64,000 nt of DNA from Alphaproteobacteria bacterium (GTDB taxonomy: Bacteria; Pseudomonadota; Alphaproteobacteria; UBA828): assembly GCA_965214705.1 (NCBI GenBank), contig CBDCCI010000002.1, forward strand, positions 544,001 to 608,000, given 5' to 3'. The position numbers and the translations under genes are program-made. This document shows, piece by piece, positions 37,732-55,406 of this stretch (its first letter is position 1; every line of letters begins with the position of its first letter). The notes under the pieces were generated by a model that worked only from the letters and a program-made list of their open reading frames with translations, was not told the DNA's origin and did no database searches.

Positions 37732-37797
37732 TGCATGACCAGGGAAAAGTGCAGGCGGGACCGCGACCGAAATCTGCGGCCCCGCCTGCGTGCCGCC

Positions 37798-38148
37798 TCA
37801 CTCCGCCGCCAGCGGGCGGCGAACCGGGCGGGCCTTCACCCGGCGCCAGTCCAGACCCTCGAAGAGGGCCTCGAACTGGCCCTTCGTAAGGCGCATCACA
37901 CCATCCTCGATCCGAGGCCAGGCGAAGCGGCCCTGCTCCAGACGCTTGTAGGTCATCACCAGACCGCTGCCGTCCCACGCAAGGAGCTTGAGCCTGTCGC
38001 CGCGGCGCGAGCGGAAGATCACGATCACCCCGGAATAGATATCGAGGTCCAGCTCCCCCGCCGCCGTCGCCGCAAGCGCGTCGTGGCCGCGACGAAAATC
38101 AACCGGCCGCGTCGCCAACACGATGCGAAGCGAGGGGGCCGCGATCAT
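37798..38148 (-). CDS. tnpB: IS66 TnpB
   Basis: Protein identical to copy 1. Confidence 0.95.
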   Translation of the reverse strand: MIAAPSLRIVLATRPVDFRRGHDALAATAAGELDLDIYSGVIVIFRSRRGDRLKLLAWDGSGLVMTYKRLEQGRFAWPRIEDGVMRLTKGQFEALFEGLDWRRVKARPVRRPLAAE

Positions 38149-38600
38149 GACGACGCCCGGCCCAGGCCCGAGGCCACCGCAACAATCCGATCGACCGCGC
38201 TCTCCACCGGAAGGCGAACGACCACGCCTAGCGCCTCGATCGCCACCGTCCGCTCGGACGTCACGCTATCAACCACCACGGGAACAAATGGCGGTGCAGA
38301 GCCACCAATCCGAGCGCCCGGAAGAGTTCCCTCCCGCGCGCGCCGCCGCCACTTGGTCAGGGTCGTATCGCTGACGCCATGGCGGCGCGCGACCGCCGCA
38401 ACCGAAGAGCCCGGCTCAAAGCTCTCCGAGACAATCCGCGCCTTCTCATCGTCCGGCCAGCGTCGCATGGGGGCCGGCTCAGACGGAGCCGGGGCGGCTC
38501 CCTCAGAAGCTGGGATCTCAACCGAAGCAACAGCGACACCGTCGCCAGATGCCAAAATCGAATCTGTCATCGCGATCTCTCCTGTGTGGCTCGTGGTCAA
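38145..38600 (-). CDS. tnpA: IS66 TnpA
   Basis: Protein identical to copy 1. Confidence 0.9.
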   Translation of the reverse strand: MTTSHTGEIAMTDSILASGDGVAVASVEIPASEGAAPAPSEPAPMRRWPDDEKARIVSESFEPGSSVAAVARRHGVSDTTLTKWRRRAREGTLPGARIGGSAPPFVPVVVDSVTSERTVAIEALGVVVRLPVESAVDRIVAVASGLGRASS

Positions 38601-38660
38601 GGCGGAGAGTCAGCCCCGAAATCAGATCCGCTGGAAGTATGGGGGCCCGATACCGCTTAC

Positions 38661-40262
38661 CGCAAACCGGGATTGTCGGCGGGAGCGGCGGGGCAGGGCG
38701 CGTCCCTGCCGGCGACCGCGCGCAGCTCGGGAGGGAGGAAACCGGTCAGGCGGTTGCCGCTCAGCCAGAGCTTCCTGAGGCTCGACAGCTTCGCCAGTTC
38801 CGCAGGGACGGGGCCGGTCAGGGCATTGTTGGCAAGCCCGAGCCTTTCCAGGTCGGTCAGTTTCCCCAGCTCGGGTGGAATGGCGCCGGTCAGCGCATTG
38901 CTGTCGAGCACCAGGGACCGCAAGCCGGCGAGATGCCCAAATGCCGCGGGTACGCGCCCCCTCAGCCCCGTTCGGGGCAGCTCCAGCGCAATGACACGAC
39001 CTTCCGGACCGCCCACGGTCACACCTTGCCATAAGCCGATAGGGACCGCCGCGTGCCAGTCGAGCGGCGCGCCGCCGGCCAGCGTGTCCTTCGCCGCCAG
39101 CAGCGTCGTGCAGTCCTCGAACAACGCGGGGCTGGTTCGCGGCGGCGGCAGGCAGAGCACGAGGCGGCCGAGATCGTGGTCAGGGACATCGAACAGCGCC
39201 GGCGGAACAGGGCCGGTCAGGCGGTTCTCTCTCAACCACAAGGCCCTGAGCCGGGGGAGTCGTGCCAGTTCCGCAGGGACGGTGCCAGTCAGGGCGTTGC
39301 GATCCAGGCTCAAGTCGCGCAGGTGGACGAGTTGTCCCAACTCCGGCGGAATCGAACCGGTGAGCCGATTGGCGGCCAAGTTCAACGAGACGAGGCCGTC
39401 CAGCCTGCCGAGGCTCGGGGGAATGCGTCCGTTCAGCCCTTTCCCGTACAGATCCAGCGCGATGACACGACCTTCCGGACCGCCCACGGTCACGCCTTGC
39501 CATAAGCCGATGGGGACCGCCGCGTGCCAGTCGAGCGGGGCGCCGCCGGCCAGCGTGTCCTTCGCCGCCAGCAGCCGCGTGCAGTCGCCGAACAACGCGG
39601 GGCTGGTTCGTGGTGGCGGCAGGCAGAGCACGAAGCGGCCGAGATCGTGGTCAGGGACATCGAACAGCGCCGGCGGAACAGGGCCGGTCAGGCGGTTCTC
39701 TCTCAACCACAAGGCCCTGAGCCGGGGGAGTCGTGCCAGTTCCGCAGGGACGGTGCCGGTCAGGGCGTTGCGATCCAGGGCCAAGACGCGCAGGTCGACG
39801 AGTTGTCCCAACTCCGGCGGAATCGAACCGGTGAGCCGATTGGCGGCCAGGTTCAACGAGACGAGGCCGTCCAGCCTGCCGAGTTTCGGGGGAATGCGTC
39901 CGTTCAGCCCTCTCCCGTACAGATCCAGCGCGATGACACGACCTTCCGGACCGCCCACGGTCACGCCTTGCCACAAGCCGATGGGGACCGCCGCGTGCCA
40001 ATCGAGCGGCGCGTCACCGGCCAGCGTGTCCTTCGCCGCCAGCAGCGTCGTGCAGTCCTCGAACAACGCGGGGCTGGTTCGAGGCGGCGGCAGGCAGAGC
40101 ACGAAGCGGCCGAGATCGTGGTCGGCGACGGTATTGATTTCGGGAGGAATGGAGTCGAAGTCGTTGCCCCAGAGACGCAGGACGGACAGCCGGAGCTCTC
40201 CGATAGCGGCCGGGACAGGGCCGGTCAAGCGGTTGCCTTGCAACCACAACGGGCTCGAGGTT
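38661..40262 (-). CDS. Middle fragment: three LRR modules
   Basis: 530-aa ORF with three DCTxLLAAKDTLAG...WQGVTVGGPEGRVIAL caps. Confidence 0.85.
38980..40123. repeat. Near-identical 471-bp tandem repeat (about 2.4 units)
   Basis: CAGGGACATCGAACAGCGCC at 39181 and 39652; 157-aa period in the protein. Confidence 0.85.
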
Positions 40263-40350
40263 CTTGAGCTGTAAGCGGTACGCAGACCCCATACCGGAAT
40301 CTGGCTTGACTACGACGGGGATTTCTTGAGGAGCGCCGTGAGCGCGCGAG

Positions 40351-42093
40351 TCATTTTGCCTCGGGCTGGAAGTTCCACGGCAGAAGCTCCTGGATGCCCG
40401 ACTGCGGGTGGCCCTTGGCGATCTTCTCGAGCGTGCTCCGCATCCAGGCGTAGGGCTCGACGCCGTTCATCTTGCAGGTCTCGATCAGCGAGGCGATGCG
40501 GGCCCAGGCTTGCGCACCCTCGTCGTTGCCGGCGAAGAGCGCGTTCTTGGCGGTGAGCTTCAGCGGCCGGATTCGGTTTTCCACCAGGTTCGAGTCGATC
40601 TCGACACGACCGTCGTGCAGGAACTCCAGCAGCCCGTCCCACTGGTTGGCGATATAGGTCAGCTTCTCGCCGAGACGCGAGCGCGGTGAGACGCGCGAGC
40701 GCTGCTCGTCGAGCCAGACACCGAAGGTGTTCACGATCGGCGCCGACTCCTCCCAACGGATCGCGCGGCGCTCCGCCGGCGGCTTGCCCCGGATCTTCTT
40801 CTCGATCGCATAGAGCTTCGCGATCCGATTCAGACCGGCCAGCGCGATCGGCGATGCGCTCGAGTCGTATACCTCTTTCAGCTTCCGTCTTACATGCGCC
40901 CAACAGAGGGCCCGCGTCACAGGGCCTTCCGCCCGGTCCGGCCGCGCCAGGATGTTGTGGCCCGAGTAGCCGTCGAGCTGCACCGTCCCCGAAAAGCCCT
41001 CCATAAGCTCGGCGCCATACTTGCCGCCGCGGCCGGGCGCATAGCGATAGACGACGCCCGGCGGGTCCGTGCCGCTCCAGTGGCGCTCGTCACGCACAAG
41101 GGTCCACATGTAGCCCGTCTTCGTCTTGCCCCGGCCCGGGTCGAGAACGCGGATCGTGGTCTCGTCCAGACCCAGGTGATCCGACTTCTTCAGCTCATCC
41201 TCCAGGCAAGCGACCACGGGGCGCAGGTGAAACGACGCCTGGCCCACCCACGTCGCCAGCGTCGCACGGTGAACCTCGATCCCCGAGCGCTCGTAGATCT
41301 GCGACTGGCGATAGAGCGGGCAATGATCGCCGTACTTCGCGATCAGCACCTGCGCCAGAAGAGCCTCGGTGGGAAGGCCGCCCTCGACCAGAGCGGCCGG
41401 CGCCGGCGACTGCACCACCCCGCCCCCCTTGCACTTGTTGCAGGCGTAGCGGGGGCGCACGGTCTCGATGACGGTGAACTTCGCCGGCTCATAGTCCAGC
41501 CGCTCGCTGCGGTCCTCGCCGATCTTCGTCATCTCGCCGCAGCCGCAGGGGCACATGATCGTGTCCGGCTCGATCACCTCCTCGCGCCGGTCGACCTGGG
41601 GCCCGAAGCGCACCCCGCTGCGCGACCCCCGGGAAGAGCGCCGCCGGCGCTTGCCGCCAGCCCCCTCGTCCTGCTCCTGGTCATCTGCCTCGGGCCGACC
41701 GCCGGCTTCAGCGATCGCCGCCCAAAACTCCTCGAACGTAAGCTGGCGCTCGTCCTCGCCGAGCTTCTCGGAGCGCGGACCGAACAGCGCCTTCCTGAGC
41801 TCCTTGTTGAGATGCTCAAGCCGGCTGATCTGCTCCGCGCTCTGCGCGTTCTCGGCCTCCAGCCGTGCCGCCCGCGCTTCCGCCGTCTGCCTCGCCGCCT
41901 CCGCCGCGCCGCGTGCCTGCTCCGCTTCGCATAGGGCTGCTTCCGTCGCCCGGCGCGCCGCGCGCTCGTCGTCAAGCTCCGCATGCAGGGCCGCCAGCGC
42001 CGCCGAAACCACCGCAGGCGACGGCGAACCGGCGCTGCTGAGGGGTGAGGGCGTGACCTTCGGCATGGGCCACCCCTTAATCCGATTCGCCAA
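40351..42093 (-). CDS. tnpC: IS66 TnpC
   Basis: Protein identical to copy 1. Confidence 0.95.
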   Translation of the reverse strand: MANRIKGWPMPKVTPSPLSSAGSPSPAVVSAALAALHAELDDERAARRATEAALCEAEQARGAAEAARQTAEARAARLEAENAQSAEQISRLEHLNKELRKALFGPRSEKLGEDERQLTFEEFWAAIAEAGGRPEADDQEQDEGAGGKRRRRSSRGSRSGVRFGPQVDRREEVIEPDTIMCPCGCGEMTKIGEDRSERLDYEPAKFTVIETVRPRYACNKCKGGGVVQSPAPAALVEGGLPTEALLAQVLIAKYGDHCPLYRQSQIYERSGIEVHRATLATWVGQASFHLRPVVACLEDELKKSDHLGLDETTIRVLDPGRGKTKTGYMWTLVRDERHWSGTDPPGVVYRYAPGRGGKYGAELMEGFSGTVQLDGYSGHNILARPDRAEGPVTRALCWAHVRRKLKEVYDSSASPIALAGLNRIAKLYAIEKKIRGKPPAERRAIRWEESAPIVNTFGVWLDEQRSRVSPRSRLGEKLTYIANQWDGLLEFLHDGRVEIDSNLVENRIRPLKLTAKNALFAGNDEGAQAWARIASLIETCKMNGVEPYAWMRSTLEKIAKGHPQSGIQELLPWNFQPEAK

Positions 42094-42159
42094 TGCATGA
42101 CCAGGGAAAAGTGCAGGCGGGACCGCGACCGAAATCTGCGGCCCCGCCTGCGTGCCGCC

Positions 42160-42510
42160 TCACTCCGCCGCCAGCGGGCGGCGAACCGGGCGGGCCTTCA
42201 CCCGGCGCCAGTCCAGACCCTCGAAGAGGGCCTCGAACTGGCCCTTCGTAAGGCGCATCACACCATCCTCGATCCGAGGCCAGGCGAAGCGGCCCTGCTC
42301 CAGACGCTTGTAGGTCATCACCAGACCGCTGCCGTCCCACGCAAGGAGCTTGAGCCTGTCGCCGCGGCGCGAGCGGAAGATCACGATCACCCCGGAATAG
42401 ATATCGAGGTCCAGCTCCCCCGCCGCCGTCGCCGCAAGCGCGTCGTGGCCGCGACGAAAATCAACCGGCCGCGTCGCCAACACGATGCGAAGCGAGGGGG
42501 CCGCGATCAT
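42160..42510 (-). CDS. tnpB: IS66 TnpB
   Basis: Protein identical to copy 1. Confidence 0.95.
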   Translation of the reverse strand: MIAAPSLRIVLATRPVDFRRGHDALAATAAGELDLDIYSGVIVIFRSRRGDRLKLLAWDGSGLVMTYKRLEQGRFAWPRIEDGVMRLTKGQFEALFEGLDWRRVKARPVRRPLAAE

Positions 42511-42962
42511 GACGACGCCCGGCCCAGGCCCGAGGCCACCGCAACAATCCGATCGACCGCGCTCTCCACCGGAAGGCGAACGACCACGCCTAGCGCCTCG
42601 ATCGCCACCGTCCGCTCGGACGTCACGCTATCAACCACCACGGGAACAAATGGCGGTGCAGAGCCACCAATCCGAGCGCCCGGAAGAGTTCCCTCCCGCG
42701 CGCGCCGCCGCCACTTGGTCAGGGTCGTATCGCTGACGCCATGGCGGCGCGCGACCGCCGCAACCGAAGAGCCCGGCTCAAAGCTCTCCGAGACAATCCG
42801 CGCCTTCTCATCGTCCGGCCAGCGTCGCATGGGGGCCGGCTCAGACGGAGCCGGGGCGGCTCCCTCAGAAGCTGGGATCTCAACCGAAGCAACAGCGACA
42901 CCGTCGCCAGATGCCAAAATCGAATCTGTCATCGCGATCTCTCCTGTGTGGCTCGTGGTCAA
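42507..42962 (-). CDS. tnpA: IS66 TnpA
   Basis: Protein identical to copy 1. Confidence 0.9.
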   Translation of the reverse strand: MTTSHTGEIAMTDSILASGDGVAVASVEIPASEGAAPAPSEPAPMRRWPDDEKARIVSESFEPGSSVAAVARRHGVSDTTLTKWRRRAREGTLPGARIGGSAPPFVPVVVDSVTSERTVAIEALGVVVRLPVESAVDRIVAVASGLGRASS

Positions 42963-43022
42963 GGCGGAGAGTCAGCCCCGAAATCAGATCCGCTGGAAGT
43001 ATGGGGGCCCGATACCGCTTAC

Positions 43023-44315
43023 CTTGAGCTTCGCCAACTCCGGCGGGATGGCCCCGGTCAAGGCGTTGAGGCCGAGATGCAGATACTCGAGGCTCGCCAG
43101 ATTTCCCAGCTCGGGCGGAATGCGACCGGTGAGCCGATTGCGTCCAAGGGACAGCGAAACGAGGCGGTCCAGGCGGCCAAGATCCGGGGGGATACGGCCG
43201 TTCAATCCAAGTCCCGCCAGATCCAGCCCGGTGACGCGTCCCTCCGGGCCTTCCACCGTCACGCCCTGCCAGCCGTTGACGGGCACGGTGCGGCTCCAGT
43301 TGAGGGCAATGTCTCCGGCCAGGATGTCCCTCGCCGCCAGCAGTACGGCGCAGTTCGCGCCAGGATTGGCGGTCGGCGAAGGGTCGCAGAACAGCTTCCT
43401 CTCAAGCATGTCGCCGGAAACGTTCCGCAACATCGACCACTGGGACAGACCGTCGGAGAATGCCGCAACGCCGACGAAGCCTGCAATCCCGACAAATCCT
43501 GTGGCGGCCAAAGCCAGGACGAAGGCCCTTGGTTTGCCGCGGACATTGATCAACAGGAACAAAACCATCAACGCACCGAGTATGACCAACGCGGTTCTGG
43601 ACGCCGACCCCAGGCTTGCGGCGACGCCGGCGGCCAGGCCCAGCCAACCGAGCGTGCGCGGCCCGCCATTGGTCAGGAACGCCGCGGCGAGTCCCACCGT
43701 CATGCAGGCGACCAAGCCGGCGTTGTTGGGCTCGGTGAAAGCACCGGTCAGGCGGAATGGAATTCTGTAAGGCGCCAGGATGCCGAGATCGCGCAGAATC
43801 GGCGAAGCGAGAATGATGACGCAGCTCGAAATCAGGACGACAAGCACGCCCTGCAACAACCGGTCGGTGCCGACTCGTTCCAGCACCGCGCGGCCACCGA
43901 CTGCGGCAGCCACGAACACACCAAAACCAAGGACCATAAATCGCAGTGTCCCAGCCGTGCCCGGCCGCCAGTCCGCCTCGTCCATCACGGCAAAGCCGAT
44001 CGCCAGATAGGATGCCACCGCACCGAGCAACAACACGCCGGGCATTCCGCCCACTGTGCTCAGGACAGAGAGGCGTGAGCCGGACTTCCGCCAGGCAAAC
44101 AAGCATCGAATTCCAACCAGGCCCACCAGGATGACTATGCATGCCATGGTCGCCCGTGCGATGACGCCTACGACTTGCGGCATCCCCCAAAGATGCAGTT
44201 CCCGCGCGCCGGTCAGAGCGATGACAGCCAACGTCCAGAACGCGACCGCGATCAGCGCGGTCTGGAGCGCCTCGCTTCGGCGCAGCAGCAAGACTGGATG
44301 TCTGAACAGGAACAT
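43023..44315 (-). CDS. N-terminal fragment: multi-TM ligase-like domain plus the first LRR module
   Basis: Several hydrophobic helices, then NCAVLLAARDILAG...WQGVTV and LRRs. Confidence 0.85.
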
Positions 44316-44630
44316 TTTCTGGATCTGAGGGGCCGACGCTCAAAAATGAATACTAACCCGAAATTGAGGTGTGTGCGCTGGCGTTTTGCCGTGAAAATGT
44401 CTGGGATCGGCGCAAACCAAGTCGTTGCGACGCTGGGGTCCATCCGGCGGCGGCAGTTCACCGTCGGCAACAGGCGCCCGGTTGGGTGGCTACGAGCGGT
44501 AGACTTCCCCGATGTGGCCCGAAGTCGGCCTCCGCCTGAGCGCGTCTACATTTTCATTCTACGGGGTGGCCGAGCCGCCGGCCATGAAAGTTATCGACAG
44601 CGCGCCGCTGATCCAGCTAAAGCCCCAAGA

Positions 44631-46977
44631 TTACGTTTCATACTGCACCTCACTACTCCCTTGGTCGGCAAGATCGGGGAAACGTCCCTGTCTTGGGCTT
44701 GGCCCTGGTTGTTCGGTCGGTGGTGGATCGAGGATTTCGTACAGGTATCGGGGTCTGTCGCTGTAGGCGTGTGCGCGCAGCAGCCCGGCCTTGTGCCATC
44801 TGTAGACCGTCGTGTCGGACACCCCGAATCGGTCGGCGATTTCCAGGGCCGTCAACAGACCGCGTTCGCGCAGTCGATCATGGCGGGACTTGAGAGCGTA
44901 GTTGTCCCGGACCACCTTCACCGATATCGGGTCGAAGGCGTGGCCGTGTCCGGTTCGGTACCCGCGCTGGTTGAGAATCGCTGCGATCTCGCCATCGGTG
45001 TGATCGTTCATCAGCCTGTCGACCTCGGCGACGACCTCGTCGCTGGTCTTGATGAGCTGGGAAGGGTGAGGGTCCGGCGTCCAGGCGATCTGTCGGGTCG
45101 CGCCGCCGCGCAGCCGCACTCCCAGGCTCCGCGTGGCCTTGGTCAGGGTCACGTCCTCGATCAGCAGCCGCGCCATCCGCTTGCGCTCGCGGTGCGGCGT
45201 CGCCGGATCGTTCCACAGGCGGGGGAAGTCGCTGGCCAGGGCGAGGATTCGCTCGCGTTGCGCGTCGTCCAACCCCTGGCCCGGTTCGGCGCGGCTGCGC
45301 TCGCGCTCGCGCTGGGCCTCGTCGAGTGCGCGAAGCTTCGCGTTCCACTCCGCCTCCAGCACGTCGGCCACCATCCGGTTGTCGGGATGGGTCTGCATGA
45401 ACCGCTGGCGCGCCAGGTCGGCTTCCTCGCGGGCGCGCTGCACCCGCTGAGCGCGCCACAGATCCGCCTCTCCGGCGCGCGCGGCGAGTTCGTCCTGCAC
45501 CTGCAACGCGACGTCCAGCGTGAGCGGTGTCATCAGCTCGACCAGCAGCGCGCCAACCGCCCGGTCGATGGCGCCGCCGGATATGCTCTGGCAATTCTCC
45601 GCGCTCGCCGTCTCGACCCTTTCGCGATTGCACAGGTAATGGGGGCTTTGTTGCCCTTTTGCGGTTCGGTAGCGCACCGTCATGTTCCTGCCGCACACGC
45701 CGCAGATCGCCAGGCCCTGCAGCAGCGCAGACCCTTCGCGCGGGGCGCCGCGTCGCTGCGCTGCGGCGTGCGCCTGGGCATTGTCCCGGAGCTGGCGCTC
45801 ATTCTGCTCGAAGCGCTCCCAGGTGATGTAGCCCGGGTGGGCATCGCGCAGCAGCACCGTCCATTCCTCTCGCGGAACGCTTCTGGTCTCGATACCGCCG
45901 CCGGGACGGCGCCGGCTGCGGCTGCGCCCGTACGCGAAAGCGCCGGCGTATCGCGGGTTGTGCAGAAGCCCCCGCGCGCGCGAACCTCAGGGGCTTCCAA
46001 TGCAGCTCACCGCTGTGGGGCCCGCCTTGAGGACGGTACGGAAACAGCAGCTTCTCGTTGTTGAAATGCCTGACCGTGGCGCTGGCCGAGCCGGTCCGCG
46101 CGAAGGTGTCGAATATCAGGCGCAGGCTGTGCTGCACCTGCTCGTCGGGGTCGAGCACCACCTGGCCGAGCGGGTCGTAGACCAGCCCCACCGGCAGCGG
46201 CACCTTCAACTCCCCGCGCTTGGCCTTGGCCAGCACTCCGCCACGCAGCCGGATGCGCATCATATGCAGCTCCGCTTCCGACATGGTCCCTTTGAGCCCG
46301 AGCAGGAGCCTATCGTTGAAGTCGCCGGGGTCGTAGACACCGTCCTCGTCGAGGATGAGCGTCTCGCTCAGGGCGCAGATCTCAAGCAGGCGGTGCCAGT
46401 CTCAGACTTCCTGACCCCGAGCTGGAAAGGTGTGGGCGGTCCCTATAGTCATGATCTTGAGGTTGCACACAAATCTCGTCTCCCTGGGCCTCGCGGCTCC
46501 GTGCGGCACGGCGGCCGCCAGAAATTTTGAGTTGATACGGAACGTCTTGCCGGAGCCACCCGCCGCAACCGGAAAGCCGCAGAAACTGGCGCTTTCGTCT
46601 CGTCTCGCTGGCCGGATCTCCACGCAAACCGTGTCACCCAAAATTATCAGAGGTCAGGAAGTCTGAGTCTGTGGAGTTGCGCGCGAGGCGGCTGACCTCA
46701 AGCCCGAGCACGATCCCGGCCCGGCCCATGCCGACCTCGGCGACCAGATGCTGGAATCCCTCGCGGTCGGCGTCGGCACCGGAGAGACCGAGGTCTTTGT
46801 CGATCACGACGATGCTCTCGGTCGGCCAGCCAGCGCCACGGCCCGCTCCCGCAGCGCGTACTGGCGGCGCGTACTCTCGCCATGGTCGAGCACCTGGCGC
46901 TGGGTAGACTGACGCACGTACAGATAGGCATCGCGGCTCAGGTGGCTCGCGGCCACCTTCTGGTGAGCGGTGTTCAT
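44631..46977 (-). pseudogene. Large serine recombinase with MITE insertion and frameshifts
   Basis: YLYVRQST catalytic motif, MSEAELH, CGVCG Zn ribbon, ends EVQYET; frame breaks near 46830 and 45975. Confidence 0.88.
46403..46665 (+). mobile_element. 263-bp MITE related to the element at 19094-21628
   Basis: TIR CAGACTTCCTGACC; 5-bp duplication AGTCT; its 3' ~45 bp resemble the parent's right end. Confidence 0.9.
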
Positions 46978-47276
46978 GCTGCTTCCCTCCCCATATGACC
47001 CCTGAGCATGGCGATCAAAACGTCGATCGCCGACGTCTCGACCCCGGTGGGCAACGGCCCGGGCGAGGCCCCCGCACGCACAGCGATCGTCGGAGCGGGC
47101 AGTTCGGCGAAGGCATGCAGCCAGGCCGCGACGCCGCGCAGCGCCACTACGGCGAGCCCGTGGCGATCGTCGCCGGCGCCGGGCTCGACGGCATGACGGC
47201 GCATCCGCTCGTAACCGTGCCCGTAGGCGGAATGTTCCGCCGCGGGGAGCGCGGCGCATGGCGGGCGGCGCATCAT
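46974..47276 (-). CDS. Hypothetical protein of the serine recombinase element
   Basis: YERMRRHA...GLAVVALRGVAAW; homolog of 52841..53134; ATGA-coupled on both sides. Confidence 0.75.
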   Translation of the reverse strand: MMRRPPCAALPAAEHSAYGHGYERMRRHAVEPGAGDDRHGLAVVALRGVAAWLHAFAELPAPTIAVRAGASPGPLPTGVETSAIDVLIAMLRGHMGREAA

Positions 47277-47734
47277 CGGCGTTTTTTTCCCCGCGCGATG
47301 GCGCGATCTATGCTGCTGCGATGGATCGAGATGCCGAAGCGTTCGCGCACCAGCTCGACCAGCGCGGCGGCGGTCAACTCCGGCTGCTTGCTCTTCGCCG
47401 TCTGCAACGCCTCGACCACCTCGTCGCTGAGCTTGTGCGCACGCCGCGGTCCCGGCCGGTCCGGCAGCAGGCCCGGCAACCCGCCAGCCTCCCAGGCGCG
47501 CTGCGCTTGATACCAGGTGGGCCGCGAGACGCCGAAGCTGGCGGCAGCGTGGCTCACCGGCACGCCATCCTCGCGCACCCGGCGCAGCATCTCGTACCTG
47601 ACCTGGAGCAGGTCGCGCGGGTCGAAGAACGGGTTCGACAGGAACAGCTCGTCGCGCACCGCCTCCGCGCGCGGGTTCAGGCAGCCGTGCTGCTTGAGGG
47701 AGCGAGACTTGGCGTCGGCGGGGCGTCTGGCCAT
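47273..47734 (-). CDS. HTH protein of the serine recombinase element
   Basis: FFDPRDLLQVRYEMLR, FGVSRPTWY, GPRRAHKL; homolog of 52383..52844. Confidence 0.85.
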   Translation of the reverse strand: MARRPADAKSRSLKQHGCLNPRAEAVRDELFLSNPFFDPRDLLQVRYEMLRRVREDGVPVSHAAASFGVSRPTWYQAQRAWEAGGLPGLLPDRPGPRRAHKLSDEVVEALQTAKSKQPELTAAALVELVRERFGISIHRSSIDRAIARGKKRR

Positions 47735-47916
47735 CGCGCGGGCTCCGTGGGGAAAGGAATGTAAATATATTTATACAACATCCCAGAGCGCAATCAACCC
47801 CCTTCTGCCTGCCTGTCACCGAAAACACGCGGAAATGTCGCACATATGCGTCACTCCTTGCCGTCTTCCCGGCCGCCGCGACACCCTGTTCCCGCCATGC
47901 ATACGCAAAAACATTC

Positions 47917-48267
47917 TTACACATGCGGCAAAATCTCCTTGACAGTCCCCGCCCCACCCTCGGCCTCCCTGCCGGCACGGCCGGCCCCCTCCAGGCCGGC
48001 CAGCAATGACCCCAGCGCGAGCAGATCAGACACCCGAAACGCCGACCGGCCCGACCCCACCCGCACAAACGGATCCTCGCAGGCAACGCTGGTCCAGCCT
48101 CGCCGTATGCTGCGCAGCACGCCGTCATCTCCCGTGTAATGCACCAACTCCACTCCCATCACCGACTTGATCTCGACCAGTGGGAACTCACGGCCGTGAA
48201 GCGGATGAAACGGGTGCGTCACCCGGACGAGCTGCCGCTCGACGCATCCGAGGGGTGCAGTTGAGGG
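47917..48267 (-). CDS. Small VTHPFHP-motif protein (DUF5372-like), lacking its own ATG
   Basis: VTHPFHPLHGREF...WTS...DPFV...GRSAFR; homolog of 51851..52201. Confidence 0.7.
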   Translation of the reverse strand, partial: PSTAPLGCVERQLVRVTHPFHPLHGREFPLVEIKSVMGVELVHYTGDDGVLRSIRRGWTSVACEDPFVRVGSGRSAFRVSDLLALGSLLAGLEGAGRAGREAEGGAGTVKEILPHV

Positions 48268-49418
48268 CCCAGTCCCATGATCGTGGCGACGGCCTTTCCG
48301 ACCCTCTCGGCGGCGGCTTCGATGTCGCGGTCGCCGAGGTGGGCGTAGCGGAGCGTCATGCGCGAATTGGAGTGGCCAAGCAGGCGGGAGACGACAGGGA
48401 CCGGCACGCCGTTCATGACCGCGTGGCTCGCCACGGTATGGCGCAGGTCGTGAAGCCGGCAGTCCTCGATGCCGGCCTTGCGGCGGACCCGGTACCAGAG
48501 AGAGAGTTCGGACCCGCGCGGCCGCGACGGATGGCGCGGCGAAGGGAACACGAAGCGGCTTTCTCCCCGCTTCTGGCGGTCCAGGATGCTCCTGGCCTGG
48601 GCGTTGAGGGGAACCTTTCTCGGCCCGGTCTTGCTGTCGGCAAGCATCAGCGCGCCGCTCTGGACCTCGGACCAGCGGAGCCCGGCGATTTCTCCCCTGC
48701 GGCATCCGGTGAGAAGCAGCAGGCGGATAATGTCGGCCTGCGGCCTGAACCGCTCTCCCCGCTTGGCCTCTTCGTCGAGGACGGCGTGAAGACGCGCGAT
48801 CTCCTCGCGCGACAGGAAGCGCGTCATCGGCGGCCGGCGGTTGGGCGCGATGCCCTGCGCGGGGTTGCTGTCGAGGAGGCCGCGGGCGATGGCGAGGTTG
48901 AAGATCGAGCGAAGCAGCTTGAGCGCGTTGTTGGCGTTGCCGGGCGCGGTGCGGCTGAATGCGTCGAACCAGCGCCTGACCTGCGCAGGCGTTATGCGCT
49001 CGAGCGGGGTCGCGCCGAAGGCGGGGAGGAGGCGGGTATCGAGCAGGCAGGCATAGGACTTCCCGGTCGCGGGCTTGCAGCGCCCGAAAATCGCCTCCTT
49101 CCATGGACCCTCCACGAACTCGCGGCACAGGGGGGCGGCGGGCGCCGGACGGACGGGCTTGTCCGTCTCCGGGCTTGCCCGGCGCTCATGGCACTCCCGC
49201 CGCGCCTCCTCCACGGTCCTGGTCGAGACCGGGCCGAGGGAGACGCGCCTGGAGCGCCCCCCGGCGTGCTCCAGCAGAACCCAGGTCTTTCCGCCGCTCG
49301 GACGGACCCGGACCCCGAGGCCGGGCACGCTCTTGTCCCAGACGGCATACTCCCGCGCGCGGGGGCGGAGACCGGCGACGGCGTCGTCGGTGAGCTTCCT
49401 GCGTTCCCTTGCCGGCAC
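48219..49418 (-). CDS. Tyrosine integrase, second of a tandem pair; C-terminal tail runs into the serine recombinase element
   Basis: LLLTGCR, DSKTG, HDLRH, LLGH, LRYAH. Confidence 0.92.
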   Translation of the reverse strand: MPARERRKLTDDAVAGLRPRAREYAVWDKSVPGLGVRVRPSGGKTWVLLEHAGGRSRRVSLGPVSTRTVEEARRECHERRASPETDKPVRPAPAAPLCREFVEGPWKEAIFGRCKPATGKSYACLLDTRLLPAFGATPLERITPAQVRRWFDAFSRTAPGNANNALKLLRSIFNLAIARGLLDSNPAQGIAPNRRPPMTRFLSREEIARLHAVLDEEAKRGERFRPQADIIRLLLLTGCRRGEIAGLRWSEVQSGALMLADSKTGPRKVPLNAQARSILDRQKRGESRFVFPSPRHPSRPRGSELSLWYRVRRKAGIEDCRLHDLRHTVASHAVMNGVPVPVVSRLLGHSNSRMTLRYAHLGDRDIEAAAERVGKAVATIMGLGPQLHPSDASSGSSSG

Positions 49419-49421
49419 GGC

Positions 49422-50543
49422 TCAGCTCCCCAGCACGGCGCCGATGGTCTCGGCGGCCTGCCGCGTCATCGCGTCGGCCGGGTGGGCATACTTGAGGGTG
49501 GTCCCCGGATCGGCATGTCCGAGCAGTCTGCCGATGGCGAGCACGGTCTCGCCATCGCGCAGCGCGATGCTGGCATGGGTATGCCGGAGATCGTGAAGAC
49601 GGGCGTCGCCGAGATCGGCCTCCGCCCGGATGCGCCACCAGAAGCTGTCCAGCCAGTGTTCGCAGTGCGCGCGTCCGGTATGCGGCGACGGAAAGACCCA
49701 ACGGCCGGTCCGCGCGATGCCGTCGAGGACGGCCCGCGCGGGCGCGGACAGCCATACGGTCCGGGGGCCGGTCTTGGAGTCGCGCAGGAACAGGCGGCCC
49801 TCGCGGTAGTCGGACCAGCGGAGCGTCAGGATCTCGCTCTTGCGGCATCCGGTCAGCAGGAGCAGGCGGATCGCGGCGACCTGCCCCGGACACGCCTCGG
49901 CGTGCGCCGCGAGCGCCCGGGAGAGCCTCCGGATCTCGTCGTCCGACAGGAACCGCTCGCGCCCCTTGCGGCGGTATCGCCGGATGCCCCGGCAGGGGTT
50001 GGAGCCCTCGGGCCGCAGCCCCATCCGTTCCGCCCCCTTCATGACGACGGAGAGGATCGGCATGGACCTGTCGGCGGCGGCCGGCGTGGCGGCCAGCGAG
50101 GCGAACCAGTCGCGCACCTCGCGCCGGTCGATATCGGCGACATTGCGCCCCGCGAAATGGGGCATGATCTGCTTGCGGAGGTAGCCCCGGTTGACACCGA
50201 GCGTGCGCGGCTTCCATGTCCGCTCGTACTGCCGGAATACGGTCTCCGCGACGGCCTCGAAGAGCGCCTCCTCGGGACGGGGCGGCGCGGTGTCGCCCCG
50301 CCTGATCGCGGCCAGCATCCCGCTCGCGCGCGAGCGCGCCTCGATCACGCCGACCGCCTCGGCGTCTCCGACGATCTTCCACACTCGTTTGCCGCGATGC
50401 TGGCAGTGGACGAAGAAGCGCTTGCCGCCCGAGGGCAGCACCCGGACGCCGAAGCCCTTGAGCTTGCCGTCGCGGACGTCGCGGGCCGTGCTGCGGGGCT
50501 TGAGCGCCCCGATGCGGGCGTCGGTGAGGTTGGTTTTGGGCAT
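49422..50543 (-). CDS. Tyrosine integrase, first of a tandem pair
   Basis: GFGVRV arm domain, LLLTGCR, HDLRH, LLGH, LKYAH. Confidence 0.92.
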   Translation of the reverse strand: MPKTNLTDARIGALKPRSTARDVRDGKLKGFGVRVLPSGGKRFFVHCQHRGKRVWKIVGDAEAVGVIEARSRASGMLAAIRRGDTAPPRPEEALFEAVAETVFRQYERTWKPRTLGVNRGYLRKQIMPHFAGRNVADIDRREVRDWFASLAATPAAADRSMPILSVVMKGAERMGLRPEGSNPCRGIRRYRRKGRERFLSDDEIRRLSRALAAHAEACPGQVAAIRLLLLTGCRKSEILTLRWSDYREGRLFLRDSKTGPRTVWLSAPARAVLDGIARTGRWVFPSPHTGRAHCEHWLDSFWWRIRAEADLGDARLHDLRHTHASIALRDGETVLAIGRLLGHADPGTTLKYAHPADAMTRQAAETIGAVLGS

Positions 50544-51024: not shown

Positions 51025-51850
51025 TCTTCGCTGTCCTCCTCTTCTGCTTCGCCGGCCAGGTCGTCGTACTCCGTCAGGTCGTGGTCGCGGACGGCGATGT
51101 CGCGCACCTTCGGGTCCTTGGGCAGGTCGACCGGGATGGGCGGGGGCTTGCCCCGCTGTTCGCGGCGCCGGGTGAGGCTCAGGCGCACGGCGTTGGGATG
51201 GGGGACACCGCGCTGCAGGGTTTCGTCGATGCCCGCCTCGAGCTCGGCGGCACCGTACTTGTCGAGCAGGCGCAAGAGCGCTGCGACGATGGAACCGAGA
51301 TGGCCGCCGCGTTTGGCGGCGTCGGCGAGCAGTTGCTCGCTGTTGGGCGCGGCCCGGACCAGACGATCCTGGCCGCGCAGGCGCCGGGCACGCCGCTTCT
51401 TCCTGGCCAGTTCGTCGATGTGCTCGGGGTTTTCGACAGGGATCCCCTTGTCGAAGCTGCGCGGATGCGTGGCGATGACGTCGGCGCCGTCGAGAATGCG
51501 CACCTCGTCGAGCGTGGCGAGGACGACGAGGGTGCGCTTCACGTGGGTGTGGGGCACGGAATAATCGTTGCTGTCGAACCTGGCGTAGGGGGTCTTGCCG
51601 ATGGTGACCTCGACCCGCTCGTCGGCGGGGAAACGGTCGTCGGGCAGCCCGATGAGGGAGCTGCGCTCCTTGTCGAAGGCCTCGCGCACGGTGATGGAGC
51701 GGTTCTCGGGCCAGGGGCGGTCGGCGGCGATGCCCTCGCACCAGGCCTCGGCCTGGGCGTTGAGATCGTCGATGTCGCGCCACTCTCGGGCGGCGAAGAA
51801 GCTCTCGCGGACGTAGCGGATCGCCCGCTCCACGCGTCCCTTGGACCAAG
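51021..51850 (-). pseudogene. istA: IstA C-terminal part of a second IS21
   Basis: KGRVERAIRYVRESF and FDSNDYSVP; 5' part missing. Confidence 0.85.
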
Positions 51851-52201
51851 CATTTAACTGCACTCGATCCACAGCATGAGGGTCGAACCTTTCGGGTGAC
51901 GCACCCGTTTCATCCCCTCCACGGACGGGAGTTCGAGCTTCTTCAGAGCCGGGTGTGCCGGGGGATAGAACGGGTGGATTACGTCGACGGGGACGGGGTG
52001 GTGCGTTCCCTCACAGCGGCGTGGACCAGTGCTGGGGCCAAGGATCCCTTCGTCATCGTCGCGTCTGGTCGCTCGGCCTTTCGGCTTCCGGATCTGCTGG
52101 CTCTGGCTGCACTGTTGGATGGCCTGCACGAGGATGGTTTGTTTGGGAGTAGCGCTGGCGGTGGCAGCGGCACTGTAAAGAGTATTACGCCGCATGTGTA
52201 A
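51851..52201 (+). CDS. Small VTHPFHP-motif protein (DUF5372-like), lacking its own ATG
   Basis: Frame open from the element end: HLTALDPQHEGRTFRVTHPFHP. Confidence 0.7.
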   Translation, partial: HLTALDPQHEGRTFRVTHPFHPLHGREFELLQSRVCRGIERVDYVDGDGVVRSLTAAWTSAGAKDPFVIVASGRSAFRLPDLLALAALLDGLHEDGLFGSSAGGGSGTVKSITPHV

Positions 52202-52320
52202 GATATATTTTGCCCAATGCGTTGGAGCGCCCTTCCCCTTTCCGGCAAACTGTCTTGTCTATATCGGGCGTTGTTCATACAGATTCTTCAGATCACGAGA
52301 AGAACTGAGGCAGGACCAGC

Positions 52321-52348
52321 TTGACACCGCATATGATTGCGGCATAAT
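52321..52348 (+). promoter_or_regulatory. Candidate sigma70 promoter for the HTH-hypothetical-recombinase operon
   Basis: TTGACA-16-CATAAT with inverted repeat CCGCA/TGCGG in the spacer; copy A has TTGATT-16-TATAAA at the equivalent place. Confidence 0.55.
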
Positions 52349-52382
52349 ATTCCTTACATTCGTTGCAGATGGAGGCCACCCC

Positions 52383-52844
52383 ATGGCCAGACGTTCAGCC
52401 GATGCAAAGACCGATGCCCTCAAGCAGCATGGCTGTCTGAACCCGCGTCCCGACGCGGTTCGCGACGAGCTGTTCCTGTCCAACGCATTCTTCGATCCGC
52501 GCGACCTGCTCCAGGTCAAGTACGAGATGCTGCGCCGTGTGCGCGAAGACGGCGTGCCCATCAGCCGTGCCGCTGCGAGCTTCGGCGTCTCGCGGCCCAC
52601 CTGGTACCAGGCACAGCTCGCCTTCGAGGCAGGCGGCCTGCCGGCGCTGTTGCCGCACCGGCGCGGCCCCCGGCGAGCCCACAAGCTCAGCGACGAAGTG
52701 GTCGAGGCGTTGCGCGCGGCAAAGAGCGAACAGCCGGAACTCAGCACCCGCGAGCTGGTCGACCTCGTGCGCGAGCGCTTCGGCCTGCGGGTCCATCGCC
52801 GCAGCATCGAACGCGCGCTCGCGCGGGGAAAAAAACGCGCATGA
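52383..52844 (+). CDS. HTH protein
   Basis: GGAGG SD; homolog of 47273..47734. Confidence 0.85.
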   Translation: MARRSADAKTDALKQHGCLNPRPDAVRDELFLSNAFFDPRDLLQVKYEMLRRVREDGVPISRAAASFGVSRPTWYQAQLAFEAGGLPALLPHRRGPRRAHKLSDEVVEALRAAKSEQPELSTRELVDLVRERFGLRVHRRSIERALARGKKRA

Positions 52845-53134
52845 CGCCGACACCGCTGGCGCTTCCGTTGACGCATTCGGCGTATGCGCAGGGCTACGAG
52901 CAGATGCGCCGCCACGCGCTCGAGCCCGGCACGCCGCTCGACCGACAGGGGCTCGCCGTGATGGTACGGCGCGGCATCGCCGCCTGGCTGTTCGTGTCCG
53001 CCGAGCTGCCCGCCGCGCCTGCCGGCGTGTGCGCGGGCGCGTCGCCCAAGGCACTGCCCGCCAGGGTCGAGAGGCCGGTGATCGACATTCTTCTCGCGAT
53101 GGTCAAAGTCCACATGGAAGGGGAGTTGGCATGA
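52841..53134 (+). CDS. Hypothetical protein
   Basis: YEQMRRHA...GIAAW; ATGA-coupled. Confidence 0.75.
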   Translation: MTPTPLALPLTHSAYAQGYEQMRRHALEPGTPLDRQGLAVMVRRGIAAWLFVSAELPAAPAGVCAGASPKALPARVERPVIDILLAMVKVHMEGELA

Positions 53135-53860
53135 GTACTGCCCATCAGAAGGTGAGCACGAGCCACCTGAGCCGCCATGCCTATCTGTACGTGCGTCAGT
53201 CCACCCCGCGCCAGGTGTACGAGAATGGCGAGAGCACGCTCCGCCAGTACGCCCTGCGCGAACGGGCCGTCGCTCTGGGCTGGCCGACCGAGAGCATCGT
53301 CGTGATCGATAGCGATCAGGGGCTATCCGGCGCCGACAGAGACCGTGAGGGCTTCAAGCATCTGGTTGCCGAGGTCGGCATGGGTCGGGCCGGGATCGTG
53401 CTCGGCCTCGAGGTGTCCAGGCTCGCGCGCAACTCCACCGAGTGGTGCCGGCTGGTCGAGATCTGCGCCCTGAGCGAGACGCTGATCCTCGATGAAGACG
53501 GCGTCTACGATCCCGGCGACTTCAACGATAGGCTCCTGCTCGGGCTGAAAGGGACGATGTCGGAGGCGGAGCTCCATTTGCTGCGCGCCCGGCTGCGCGG
53601 CGGAATCCTCAATCGAGCCAAACGCGGCGAGTTGAAGATGCCGCTGCCACTGGGGCTGGTGTACGACCCGCTCGATCGTGTGGTTCTCGATCCCGATGCG
53701 CAGGTTCAACACAGCCTCAGGCTGCTCTTCGACACCTTCACCCGCACCGGCACGGCCTGCGCCACGGTGAAGCACTTCCGTGACGAAGGACTGCTCTTTC
53801 CCCGCCGGCCGCGCAGCGGACCGCACAAGGGTGAGCTGCATTGGCAGCCGCTCAAAGGTT

Positions 53861-53902
53861 AAGGGTTGGGCAGGCTCTCTCTCGAGAGCCTGCCCAACCC
53901 TT
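53861..53902. repeat. Perfect 19-bp-arm hairpin at the element's 3' end
   Basis: AAGGGTTGGGCAGGCTCTC-tctc-GAGAGCCTGCCCAACCCTT. Confidence 0.92.
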
Positions 53903-54164
53903 TTGAACGAAGCCGCGGGCCACGAGAGGCGAAGTTGAGCTATGTGGAAAGTGCGCTGATGTCAGCGTCAGGCGGCATCCACCGGCAGCAGAGTTGCGCA
54001 TAAAATCGACGCTCGCGCCGGTCTTTCGGCAGGCATGCGGGCGCACGCTGCGAGGACTGAGCGGGGTGTGAGCCGAGGGCTGTCAGCCCGGCTCAAGCGG
54101 AGACAGGTTCGGTCGTGCGTCGGCGCTTTGGCGCCGTTGCGCGGGGCCGAAGCGAGCGGGCGTC

Positions 54165-55406
54165 TCACGGTTTCCCCCTGTGGGTCGGCGGCAGCGCCGG
54201 CGGGCCGCGCGTCGAGCGGGGCTCATGGCGGCGGCGGATTTCGCGGACGAGGCGCATGACGCCGCCGCAGTGGGGGCAGGCCACGGGCGCGGTGCCGATC
54301 TCGGGCTCTTCGTCGGGCTCGGCCCGAGCGCCGTCCACGCTTCCCTCGGGGGCGGCGCAGCCGAGGGCGCCGAGAGCCTGGCGTGCTCTCTCCAGCGTGC
54401 TGGCGCGGCAGCCGTTGGCGAGGATGCCGAAGTAGCGAATGCGGTGCATGCCGTCCGGCAGGACGTGCCTCAGGAAGCGGCGGATGAACTCGTCGGCGCT
54501 CACGGTGGCGATGCCGTAGCGCGGCTTTCTCTGCCCCGGCGCCTTGGGCTTTCGGTGGCGGAAGGAGACCGTCTCGCCGTCGAAGGAGACGATGCGGCTG
54601 TCGGAGATGGCGATCCTGTGCGTGTAGTGCGAGAGGTACCGGAAGACCTGCTCAGGCCCGCGGAAGGGCCGCTTGGCGTAGACCACCCAGTCCCTGGCCC
54701 GGGCGGCGGCAAGCGTGGCGTGGAACTCGCCGGGATTGGCGAGGTGGGCGAGGGTGCCGTGGAACTCCAGGTCCCCCCGGCCGTGGGCGCGGGCGAGCTC
54801 CTCGAGGAAGAGGCGGCGGAACAGGCTGCCGAGGACCTTGACGGGGGCGAGGAAGGTGGTGCTCCCCGTCTTCCACTCGCCACTGTCTACGTCGAAGCCC
54901 GCGTTGGGCACGACCACGTGCAGGTGCGGGTGGAAGCGGAGCTTCTGATCCCAGGTATGGAGGACCGCGGTGCCGCCGATGCGCATGCCGCCGTGGCGGG
55001 GATCGGCGGCGATGGTGCGCAGGGTCTCGGCGACGGCCCGGAAGAGGATGTCGAACACCACCCTGCGGTTGCAGAAGGCAATGGCGGCAACCTCCTTGGG
55101 CAGGGTGAAGACCACATGGAAGTAGGGCACCGGCAGGATGTCCCCGGCGCGCTCCTCGCTCCAGAGGTTGGCGGCGAGACCCTGGCAGGTGGGGCAGTGG
55201 CGGTTGCGGCAGGAGTTGAAGAGCGGATGCTCGCGCCCGCAGCCCTCGCAGGCGTACATGTGGCCGCCGAGCACGGCGGTGCGGCACGCCTCGATGGCGC
55301 CCATGACCTTGAGCCGGGCGGCGTCGATGCGCCCTTTGTGGCGCTCACGGAAAGCGGCGCCGGCGCGGCGGAAGATCTCCGCCACGCCCGCGCGTTCGGC
55401 CTCCAC
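54165..55406 (-). CDS. IS91-family (Y2/HUH) transposase
   Basis: NSCRNRHCPTC, LHTW...HPHLH, YLSHY, RIRYFG, C-terminal CPHCG. Confidence 0.93.
   Translation of the reverse strand: MEAERAGVAEIFRRAGAAFRERHKGRIDAARLKVMGAIEACRTAVLGGHMYACEGCGREHPLFNSCRNRHCPTCQGLAANLWSEERAGDILPVPYFHVVFTLPKEVAAIAFCNRRVVFDILFRAVAETLRTIAADPRHGGMRIGGTAVLHTWDQKLRFHPHLHVVVPNAGFDVDSGEWKTGSTTFLAPVKVLGSLFRRLFLEELARAHGRGDLEFHGTLAHLANPGEFHATLAAARARDWVVYAKRPFRGPEQVFRYLSHYTHRIAISDSRIVSFDGETVSFRHRKPKAPGQRKPRYGIATVSADEFIRRFLRHVLPDGMHRIRYFGILANGCRASTLERARQALGALGCAAPEGSVDGARAEPDEEPEIGTAPVACPHCGGVMRLVREIRRRHEPRSTRGPPALPPTHRGKP

Follow-up and report, generated by a model that had tools for sequence, protein, structure and literature searches.

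Joining the ends of a mobile element can make an expression signal that exists only in the circle, as in the circles of the insertion sequences (IS) IS911, IS30, and IS110/IS1111, the tandems of IS21, and Tn4451 (TnpX). In these cases, the junction assembles a promoter, with the -35 box on one end and the -10 box on the other; lambda sib retroregulation follows a similar logic. Here, we describe an element in which joining the ends would complete a gene. It lies in a 64,000-nucleotide stretch of an Alphaproteobacteria bacterium (GTDB lineage UBA828; GenBank assembly GCA_965214705.1, contig CBDCCI010000002.1, positions 544,001 to 608,000), called the window below, and encodes a large serine recombinase (LSR) and a protein of the DUF5372 family (PF17342). 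As in IS circles, circle-specific products would drive the next step. In contrast to the junction promoters, the promoter-like block of DUF5372 elements is wholly internal, and it is a reading frame and a ribosome-binding site that the ends assemble.

The element resembles LSR elements with recombination directionality factors (RDFs), such as phiC31 gp3, Bxb1 gp47, and SPbeta SprB, in its recombinase of Resolvase, Recombinase, zinc-ribbon, and coiled-coil parts. It is also like them in its putative attP, an imperfect palindrome of ~46 bp with a 2-bp crossover whose dinucleotide matches in attL, attR, and attB, with no longer target duplication. As in RDF systems, a small, unrelated candidate cofactor is predicted at the zinc-ribbon/coiled-coil junction (PMC12286644, PMC5814800, and bioRxiv 10.1101/2025.01.03.631226), where published RDFs are predicted to bind the LSR (PMC12286644). 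A prophage needs its RDF and carries the gene for it in one piece, whereas the DUF5372 gene is cut by attP and would be complete only when the element is excised, a layout that predicts the opposite direction of action from that of a canonical RDF. Unlike phage LSR systems, the DUF5372 element is a 3.3-kb multicopy IS-like unit, and its LSR has an extra C-terminal MerR/excisionase-type helix-turn-helix (HTH).

In the integration-dependent immunity of mycobacteriophage BPs, attP lies in a nonrecombinase gene whose products differ by state. A tyrosine integrase exchanges the 3' end of the repressor gene there, and the two versions, of 103 and 136 residues, are both made as protein (PMC4557955). 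The DUF5372 element shares the arrangement, with products that would likewise differ by state, but its gene loses the 5' end (the Shine-Dalgarno [SD] sequence, the start, and five codons), the integrated form has no translation start, and the enzyme is a serine recombinase. The SSV-type "suicidal" integrases also have att inside an element gene that is split by integration and rebuilt by excision; what is interrupted in that case is the gene of the tyrosine recombinase, and a review describes the arrangement as exclusively archaeal (PMC8371274). By contrast, the gene split here is a bacterial accessory gene, and att leaves the LSR gene whole, its stop (44631-44633) lying 5 nt before the crossover (44626-44627) in the copy named A below. 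The mutS-borne elements of Vibrio splendidus 12B01 similarly carry an outward translation start at the element end (PMC5296598); that start serves the interrupted host gene, whereas the one described here faces no host frame and matches the element's own gene across the junction. A serine-recombinase attP that parts the ribosome-binding site and start from an accessory gene, the product of which is predicted to bind the recombinase, differs from all of these systems. Neither DUF5372/PF17342 nor a comparable gene reconstituted in a serine-recombinase circle was found in the literature searched, with subscription journals and supplementary files outside its scope.

Ends of the element and the joined reading frame

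The element is present in the window as copies A and B (Table 1). A BLAST search of the genome returned three uninterrupted paralogues of the integrase 3' end that flanks copy A, 95 to 97% identical to it (C1:~503460, C1:~2485940, and C3:~510593). In the alignment with these empty sites, attL and attR share TGGG with all three; because the empty sites share this motif with both junctions, the copy A element is 3,650 nt long. On the minus strand, its right end reads GAGG-TGCAGT-ATG-AAA-CGT-AAT-C (plus strand 44629-44651), and the arms GGTGCAGT and ACTGCACC form an exact 8-bp inverted repeat. When the ends are joined, the arms stand 30 nt apart with the T|G of TGGG exactly midway, which, for a junction built in silico, is the layout expected of a serine-integrase attP with a 2-bp crossover.

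The joined frame reads M-K-R-N-L from the right end and G-T-G-P-S-T-A-P-L-G-C-V-E-R-Q-L-V-R from the left end and then enters the domain at V-T-H-P-F-H-P, with the crossover between codons 5 and 6. A first-pass annotation of the window had quoted the SD sequence and ATG at the right end, overlapping the LSR codons, and the inverted arms, all of which are present. It had joined the ends at a "shared C," and measured against the empty sites, those ends were off by 10 to 12 nt. The true junction adds 12 nt, or four codons, to that version, and the frame is kept. The reservations attached to it, an off-center crossover and a single shared nucleotide, do not apply to the revised ends, in which the crossover TG is central in the 30-nt spacer and 4 nt are shared. 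The central proposal, that the att site lies inside the gene and that integration parts the gene body from its SD sequence and start, is upheld by the crossover obtained from the empty sites.

As it stands in copy A, the DUF5372 body has no ATG, SD sequence, or promoter of its own, and its domain begins at V. As the first-pass annotation had stated, no ATG in the DUF5372 frame occurs between the element end and the domain; the sole candidate start is the GTG of this V (48222-48220), which has no SD core. The PF17342 match scores 70 bits (cutoff, 25; E value, 1.7e-19) and aligns residues 16-91 with model positions 1-76 of 78. Logan contigs of three of four public runs skip exactly 3,650 nt, with 4 ambiguous letters and 26 letters on the shorter side; their source may be the paralogous empty sites, and they are not evidence of excision.

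Conservation of the ends and the frame in related elements

Two sets of related elements were compared. Set 1 comprises loci found with a profile of DUF5372 homologues and blind to the right end (47 loci from metagenome-assembled genomes [MAGs] and 5 copies from the same genome as the window, giving 52 sources). Set 2 starts from the right-end motif, which at least 120 metagenome stretches contain; 80 of these were kept, with 28 contigs having at least 3.2 kb of upstream sequence. Pooled, the sets give 44 distinct junction open reading frames (ORFs). Both ends were present in 38 of the set 1 sources and only the left end in 12, of which 6 are truncated contigs and the other 6 are considered below, and the N-terminal region was missing in 2. 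Symmetry places the crossover 15 nt from each arm, and at this position attL and attR carry the same dinucleotide in 35 of the 37 testable set 1 elements, the exceptions (L023 and L025) being copies in one multicopy genome. In set 2, the left end was found by pattern in 22 of 28 contigs, with agreement of the dinucleotide in 20 of the 22, and three further contigs show the same geometry on inspection. Across both sets, the dinucleotide varies by lineage (TG, TT, TC, CG, AC, AG, CT, GG, AT, GA, and CA); being variable among lineages yet matched between the ends, it is the signature of a 2-bp crossover and not a fixed motif. In a single MAG (L020, L023 to L027, and L041), the crossover nucleotides CG, TT, CT, and AG occur among the copies and two copies have unlike ends, which points to flank swapping between copies or to tolerance at the crossover.

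The joined frame is open in 37 of 37 set 1 elements, with an outward ATG in 36 and a GTG in 1 (L036), and in 22 of 22 set 2 elements. The expectation that end joining restores the frame across homologous elements is thus borne out by an open, in-frame junction ORF in 44 of 44. Over codons 1-23, stops occur in none of the 44 joined frames, compared with 39 and 44 of 44 in the other two frames. The 8-bp arms, 30 nt apart, are kept in the 44 distinct elements, which come from several phyla, and chance is excluded because the same arms, spacing, and frame recur in all of them. In every element that retains the N-terminal region, 13 codons separate arm and domain. Linker codons 14-23 are not conserved as protein, apart from a hydrophobic residue two codons before the V; the linker is constant in length, whereas the neighboring intergenic region ranges from 176 to 220 nt. 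Judged from the alignment, the linker behaves as a length-fixed, stop-free adaptor rather than as a conserved peptide. The DUF5372 domain itself shows coding-type third-position variation (0.45/0.42/0.87).

Annotated homologues bear the mark of a missing contiguous start. Gene callers begin 46 of 120 homologues at GTG, and the N-terminal motif was not found in 63 of 120, most of which start at an internal Met ~21 residues into the domain. Callers begin at the GTG or the internal Met because contiguous starts are missing, the true start being 3.3 kb away at the opposite end, and the annotated PF17342 genes are systematically too short.

Start signals and gene order

Of 22 distinct set 1 elements, 21 have an SD core (GAGG or GGAGG) 6 nt ahead of the outward start, and 1 has such a core ahead of the V codon. 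Counted from the outward ATG, the LSR gene stops at +8 in 15, at +1 (an ATGA overlap) in 9, and at -4 in 7 of 33 loci; L002 and the broken L030 deviate, and the overall range is -22 to +8, with the crossover at +14/+15. With the stop at one of these three positions in 31 of 33 loci, the translational coupling to the LSR that had been proposed from copy A alone gains family-wide support. In copy A, the LSR end E-V-Q-Y-E-T-stop crosses the att arm, with an 11-nt overlap with the outward ATG (TAA, 44633-44631). The HTH and orf100 genes overlap in an ATGA, and so do the orf100 and LSR genes. A 22-row alignment of the region that separates the end of DUF5372 from the HTH gene shows the conserved block TTGAT-N17-ATAAAT...TTACATTC...GGAG. 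The corresponding promoter of copy B is TTGACA-16-CATAAT (11 of 12), and a promoter/terminator scan of copy A returned no sites. From this arrangement, the operon of a circle would read promoter-HTH-orf100-LSR-DUF5372; the chromosomal order is permuted, with DUF5372 parted from promoter, SD sequence, and start. The gene had been described as the first of the element, and while its completion by end joining stands, it is better called the last gene of a circular operon.

When the element is integrated, the outward ATG opens an ORF of 16 amino acids (aa) in copy A and of 5 aa in copy B, with a median of 29.5 aa over 56 distinct flanks and a length of at most 50 aa in 38 of the 56. Elements that give a new promoter and translation start to an interrupted gene are known (PMC5296598), and copy A is inserted inside a gene, so that the outward SD sequence and ATG might be thought to restart the interrupted or downstream host gene, as in the Vibrio mutS elements. 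The short integrated-state peptides lead us to reject this service to the host gene. In addition, most targets are transposase genes antisense to the element, and in copy A the outward frame differs from that of the integrase, the target being the last two integrase codons. Nor did the insertions show a recurring in-frame fusion between the outward start and the targeted gene. We give this explanation almost no credence.

DUF5372 protein and its predicted complex with the recombinase

The structure model of DUF5372 (predicted local distance difference test [pLDDT] score, 72) has an SH3-like barrel at residues 13-55, followed by helices. In the 116-aa translation, the first beta-strand of the model occupies residues 13-16 and so precedes the GTG. 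A sequence search of the PDB gave only chance-level matches, Foldseek gave nothing at an E value of ≤0.001, and NCBIfam gave no match. VIA-align found a generic SH3/KOW/Tudor-like barrel with Z scores of 5.0 to 5.7, a range common for unrelated matches, and the Atlas search found mostly DUF5372 clusters and one unnamed cluster at a score of 0.91.

The intact LSR of element L001 (8288-10360) has the Resolvase, Recombinase, zinc-ribbon, and coiled-coil layout (PF00239, 9.7e-20; PF07508, 1.1e-18; PF13408, 7.1e-10). After the coiled coil, it carries, as the recombinases of this family do, a C-terminal MerR/excisionase-type HTH at residues 618-657, which is outside the usual LSR layout and is also found at window positions 44700-44850; it matches MerR at 1.7e-06 and TIGR01764 ("excise") at 1.2e-05, the latter below the cutoff.

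A complex prediction for this LSR with its own DUF5372 scored 0.74, and the best of three controls scored 0.00; at least 65% of contacts are shared between runs, and the partner pLDDT is at least 66. The mark used was reached by 58 of 80 solved complexes and by 2 of 110 mismatched pairs, counts that are only rough because our own alignments were used here. The predicted interface comprises LSR residues 335-340 (zinc ribbon), 392-412 and 476-516 (both legs, the coiled-coil base), and 521-540 and, on DUF5372, H-P-F-H-P-L (21-26) and residues 68-95, with 13 of the 19 invariant columns of the family. DUF5372 is thus predicted to dock on the zinc-ribbon/coiled-coil junction of the LSR, and in the model it looks like a directionality-type cofactor. 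The earlier suggestion of a candidate directionality or integration factor gains support from this control-passing prediction, the role itself being likewise predicted.

Signs of mobility

Copies B2 (C1) and B3 (C2), two uninterrupted relatives of copy B elsewhere in the genome, are 100% identical to each other over 3,373 nt, with flanks just 92% alike, and copy B is 99.9% identical to them. Two contigs equal exactly one element (L075, 3,399 nt; L031, 3,333 nt). Together, the empty paralogous sites, the identical copies in unlike flanks, and the one-element contigs are indirect signs of mobility, consistent with excision to a circle.

A split gene as a probable state-dependent switch

The best account of these data as a whole, and in our judgment probably the right one, is a split gene that is completed by circularization and encodes a state-dependent cofactor. 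Copy A would be a decayed member of a 3.3- to 3.7-kb IS-like family moved site-specifically by the LSR, with attP (two 8-bp inverted arms, 30 nt apart, and a central 2-bp crossover) inside the DUF5372 coding sequence. In the integrated state, the internal promoter would drive HTH-orf100-LSR, and the terminal SD-ATG would give just a short, flank-dependent peptide. Excision would join the ends and make DUF5372 the last gene of a circular operon, coupled to the LSR and yielding a protein of ~124 aa. As a cofactor reporting that the element is a circle, this protein would most likely bias the LSR toward integration or block further excision. DUF5372, a Pfam family of unknown function, would gain a concrete, testable role, and a split start would be a translational addition to the known ways in which mobile elements sense the integrated and free states.

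Several observations weigh against this account. The attP pattern (right arm plus ATG, 24 N, left arm) occurs neither in the metagenome contigs nor in the genome contigs. In the 80 metagenomic stretches kept, the right end is never followed by a left end, the window's own genome gave no circle junction to a looser regular expression, and no right-to-left joint that goes back was found in the contigs of the four public runs. Six set 1 loci, in 14-kb stretches, have only the left end and no recognizable right end within 7 kb, and 3 of the 28 metagenome contigs with enough upstream sequence have the right-end motif but no DUF5372. The codon at V is GTG in 19 of 44 elements, including all copies in the window and its genome, and some internal initiation is possible there. 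Linker codons 14-23 show no codon periodicity (1.15/1.13/1.16), and the arms and 30-nt spacer are constrained as DNA sites, so that M-K-R, S-T-A, and GAGG could be kept for recombinase binding. The binding of DUF5372 to the LSR is a prediction made on our own alignments. Finally, a canonical RDF made solely by the circle would block reintegration, and DUF5372 must therefore either act in an unusual direction or do something else. The missing circle junction weighs little, as the searches covered assembled contigs, which drop rare forms.

The GTG codons, the aperiodic linker, the conservation that arms and spacer need as DNA, and the failure to see a circle junction in contigs would also fit an att site that merely abuts the gene. 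DUF5372 would then be translated when integrated, from the internal GTG, another start, or flank read-through, and the outward signals would be by-products of a recombinase-binding site. Against this stands the identity of the V/I codon, which is GTG in 19 of 44 elements but GTA in 8, GTC in 8, ATC in 5, ATA in 2, and GTT in 2, and so is not a start in 25 of 44; in set 2, the more diverse of the two, it is GTC, GTA, ATC, ATA, or GTT in 21 of 22 and GTG in 1. No in-frame ATG, GTG, or TTG lies between the crossover and this codon in 23 of 44 elements, and several have none for a further 15 to 35 codons of the conserved domain. Initiation at the internal GTG, which had been named as the observation that would overturn the proposal, is therefore impossible family-wide. 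General fusion to a host ORF is impossible as well because the flanks vary in orientation and frame. The rarity of an SD core before the V codon, the absence of stops from the joined frame alone, the fixed length of the linker beside a variable intergenic region, and L036, in which ATG has been swapped for GTG with the start kept, argue in the same direction. Translation in the integrated state is, on balance, unlikely.

A further possibility accepts the split but makes DUF5372 an ordinary excision-promoting RDF, produced by a rare first excision and acting in trans on other copies in a burst. The predicted binding site equals the RDF site (PMC12286644), and the elements are multicopy, with eight DUF5372 places in the window's own genome and up to six loci in one MAG. 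However, a circle that makes an integration-blocking factor could not reintegrate and, as it does not replicate, would be lost, and the first excision would have to proceed without the factor. We consider a trans-acting burst of this kind improbable, more so than translation in the integrated state.

Returning to the circle-completed cofactor, DUF5372 would favor integration or shut off excision. A more specific version, which we offer only tentatively, is a "reverse" directionality factor. The circle alone would complete the gene, and the hinge-docked protein would switch the LSR from excision to integration or displace an excision factor (orf100 or the HTH protein), after which integration would reset the system. 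The family would then be a hyperparasite homing to a fixed site in the catalytic core of rve-type transposases or, in the lineage of the window, to tyrosine-integrase genes. If DUF5372 does control direction, it would provide a compact, self-resetting switch for LSRs, genome-engineering tools that are still without good direction control.

Distribution and targets

Among 301 genomes of the class, 6 carry PF17342, including the window's own genome, which has it in eight places. The MAGs with DUF5372 loci are labeled Alpha-, Gamma-, and Deltaproteobacteria, Acidobacteria, Nitrospinaceae, Thermodesulfobacteriota, and Longimicrobiales. The element is thus a compact IS-like LSR element of sporadic distribution; such elements are widespread and prefer the transposase genes of other mobile elements. 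The lineage of copy A targets the last codons of a multicopy tyrosine-integrase gene, a target shared by copy A2, L004, L029, and two fragments. In most other lineages, the element is found at one fixed place in DDE transposase genes of other mobile elements, in antisense orientation. Thirty open flank frames were picked by eye from 56 distinct right flanks (L048 to L127), and 21 of the 30 match Pfam rve at an E value of ≤0.001, most ending at model position 101-102 of 102, at the crossover. The flank motifs at the crossover are ...GNPYD|, ...RPxxPRD|, ...SPWQ|, and ...SPQA|. Copy B (left flank, 51780-51842) and its twins (C1:~21250 and C2:~22220) lie in the IS21 gene IstA, immediately ahead of K-G-R-V-E-R. 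Such elements seem to be parasites that home to the catalytic cores of other elements.

Features of copies A and B

TABLE 1 Coordinates of copies A and B and of their parts in the window
Feature	Position	Strand	Basis
Copy A, mobile element, 3,650 nt	44628-48277	minus	ends from three empty paralogous sites
Right end of copy A (attR)	44624-44651	minus	empty-site comparison; motif recurs in 38/52 sources
SD sequence GAGG at attR (plus strand CCTC)	44648-44651	minus	sequence
Right 8-bp arm	44642-44649	minus	sequence
Outward-facing ATG, then AAA CGT AAT CTT	ATG 44641-44639	minus	sequence
Crossover dinucleotide TG in attR	44627-44626, inside shared TGGG 44627-44624	minus	empty sites
Left end of copy A (attL)	48254-48277	minus	empty-site comparison
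Left 8-bp arm, read in frame as T-A-P	48261-48254	minus	sequence; 15-nt half-spacer adjoins
Crossover dinucleotide TG in attL	48277-48276	minus	empty sites
DUF5372 gene body, 119 codons plus stop	47917-48276	minus	PF17342; starts directly after crossover
Promoter-like site, TTGATT-16 nt-TATAAA, then GGAG and HTH ATG	47770-47797	minus	read by eye from alignment
HTH protein, 153 aa	47273-47734	minus	HTH_32, HTH_23, HTH_28, HTH_29
orf100, 100 aa	46974-47276	minus	ATG overlaps HTH stop (ATGA); stop overlaps recombinase ATG (ATGA)
LSR gene, decayed	44631-46977	minus	ORF pieces and Pfam
MITE-like insertion in LSR, 266 nt	46402-46667	not assigned	repeat family D15
Target gene, tyrosine integrase, 3' end = attB	48278-49418	minus	Phage_integrase, Arm-DNA-bind_3
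Copy B, ~75-80% identical to copy A	51841-57882	plus	genome comparison
Copy B crossover dinucleotide TT	51841-2 and 57881-2	plus	
Copy B left arm ACTGCACT	51857	plus	
Copy B right arm GGTGCAAT	57859	plus	
Copy B outward ATG	57867	plus	
Copy B DUF5372 body	51843-52201	plus	
Copy B promoter	52321-52350	plus	
Copy B HTH gene	from 52384	plus	
Copy B recombinase gene	from 53132	plus	

Copies A and B are both broken. The LSR of copy A is spread over at least four ORF pieces (46804-47259, 46634-46807, 45799-46284, and 44631-45857), and it is dead, with a minimum of two frameshifts (around 46830 and around 45990) besides an insert of 266 nt that resembles a miniature inverted-repeat transposable element (MITE). 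Contigs of the public runs have an extra C behind 46829 in other strains. The last piece, 44631-45857, retains Zn_ribbon_recom (PF13408, 5.3e-10) and HTH domains. The MITE-like insert is missing from copy A2 (C1:1814209-1817917), has a 98% copy at C3:3022297-3022559, and is the site of joints in the public-run contigs that skip 268 to 293 nt. The same MITE-like element occurs at window positions 21569-21628, with 47-nt end matches at several further places. The HTH protein matches IS630 (1.7e-17) and IS481 (8.1e-15), both below the cutoff and over its N-terminal part alone, apparently resembling the N-terminal DNA-binding part of IS630/IS481 transposases. orf100 is kept in related elements; it matched no Pfam family in copy A, and its L001 homologue matched none in Pfam or NCBIfam. 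The empty integrase paralogues end in ...A-T-I-M-G-L-stop, and the insertion of copy A replaces the stop, adding 16 residues to the integrase (ORF to 48219) in a frame other than that of DUF5372.

The joined frame of copy B is open and in frame, and its LSR is interrupted by an IS of ~2.7 kb (about 53852-56525). Pieces of this IS are 97 to 100% identical to window positions 5503-6808 and 8470-9714 in the opposite orientation. IstA paralogues were tried as an empty site for copy B and set aside: the left flank matches up to the TT, and the right flank (57883-58020) is different DNA. The IstA continuation is instead found to the right of B2 and B3, and four intact paralogues have it too. Since the right flank of copy B is not this continuation, the locus was rearranged after the insertion, perhaps by recombination between element copies. 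A fourth, divergent copy (C3:63417, ITHPFHP) was rejected as an independent test, its recombinase being cut by a 2,753-bp IS.

Surroundings in the window

Beside copy A lie two tandem tyrosine-integrase genes (48219-50543, minus strand) of 399 and 373 aa, with Phage_integrase and Arm-DNA-bind_3 domains. The 3' 215 nt of the first is highly repeated, with ~40 paralogous matches across three genome contigs, and provides the attB of the copy A lineage. The 2,753-bp IS is present in the window in four 100%-identical copies (294-3045, 9773-12525, 35909-38661, and 40271-43023). Through its end, the gene at 42984-44315 and the recombinase of the fourth DUF5372 element (C3:~66196) acquire the same tail, ...GIGPPYFQRI. 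The region 33231-44315 holds long arrays of 471-nt and related repeats (families D1 to D3 and D8) and has the look of a large gene for a repeat protein that IS insertions have broken up. Plant-type leucine-rich repeats (...LTGRIPPELGNL...) form the end of the ORF at 42984-44315 (minus strand), which the 2,753-bp IS interrupts.

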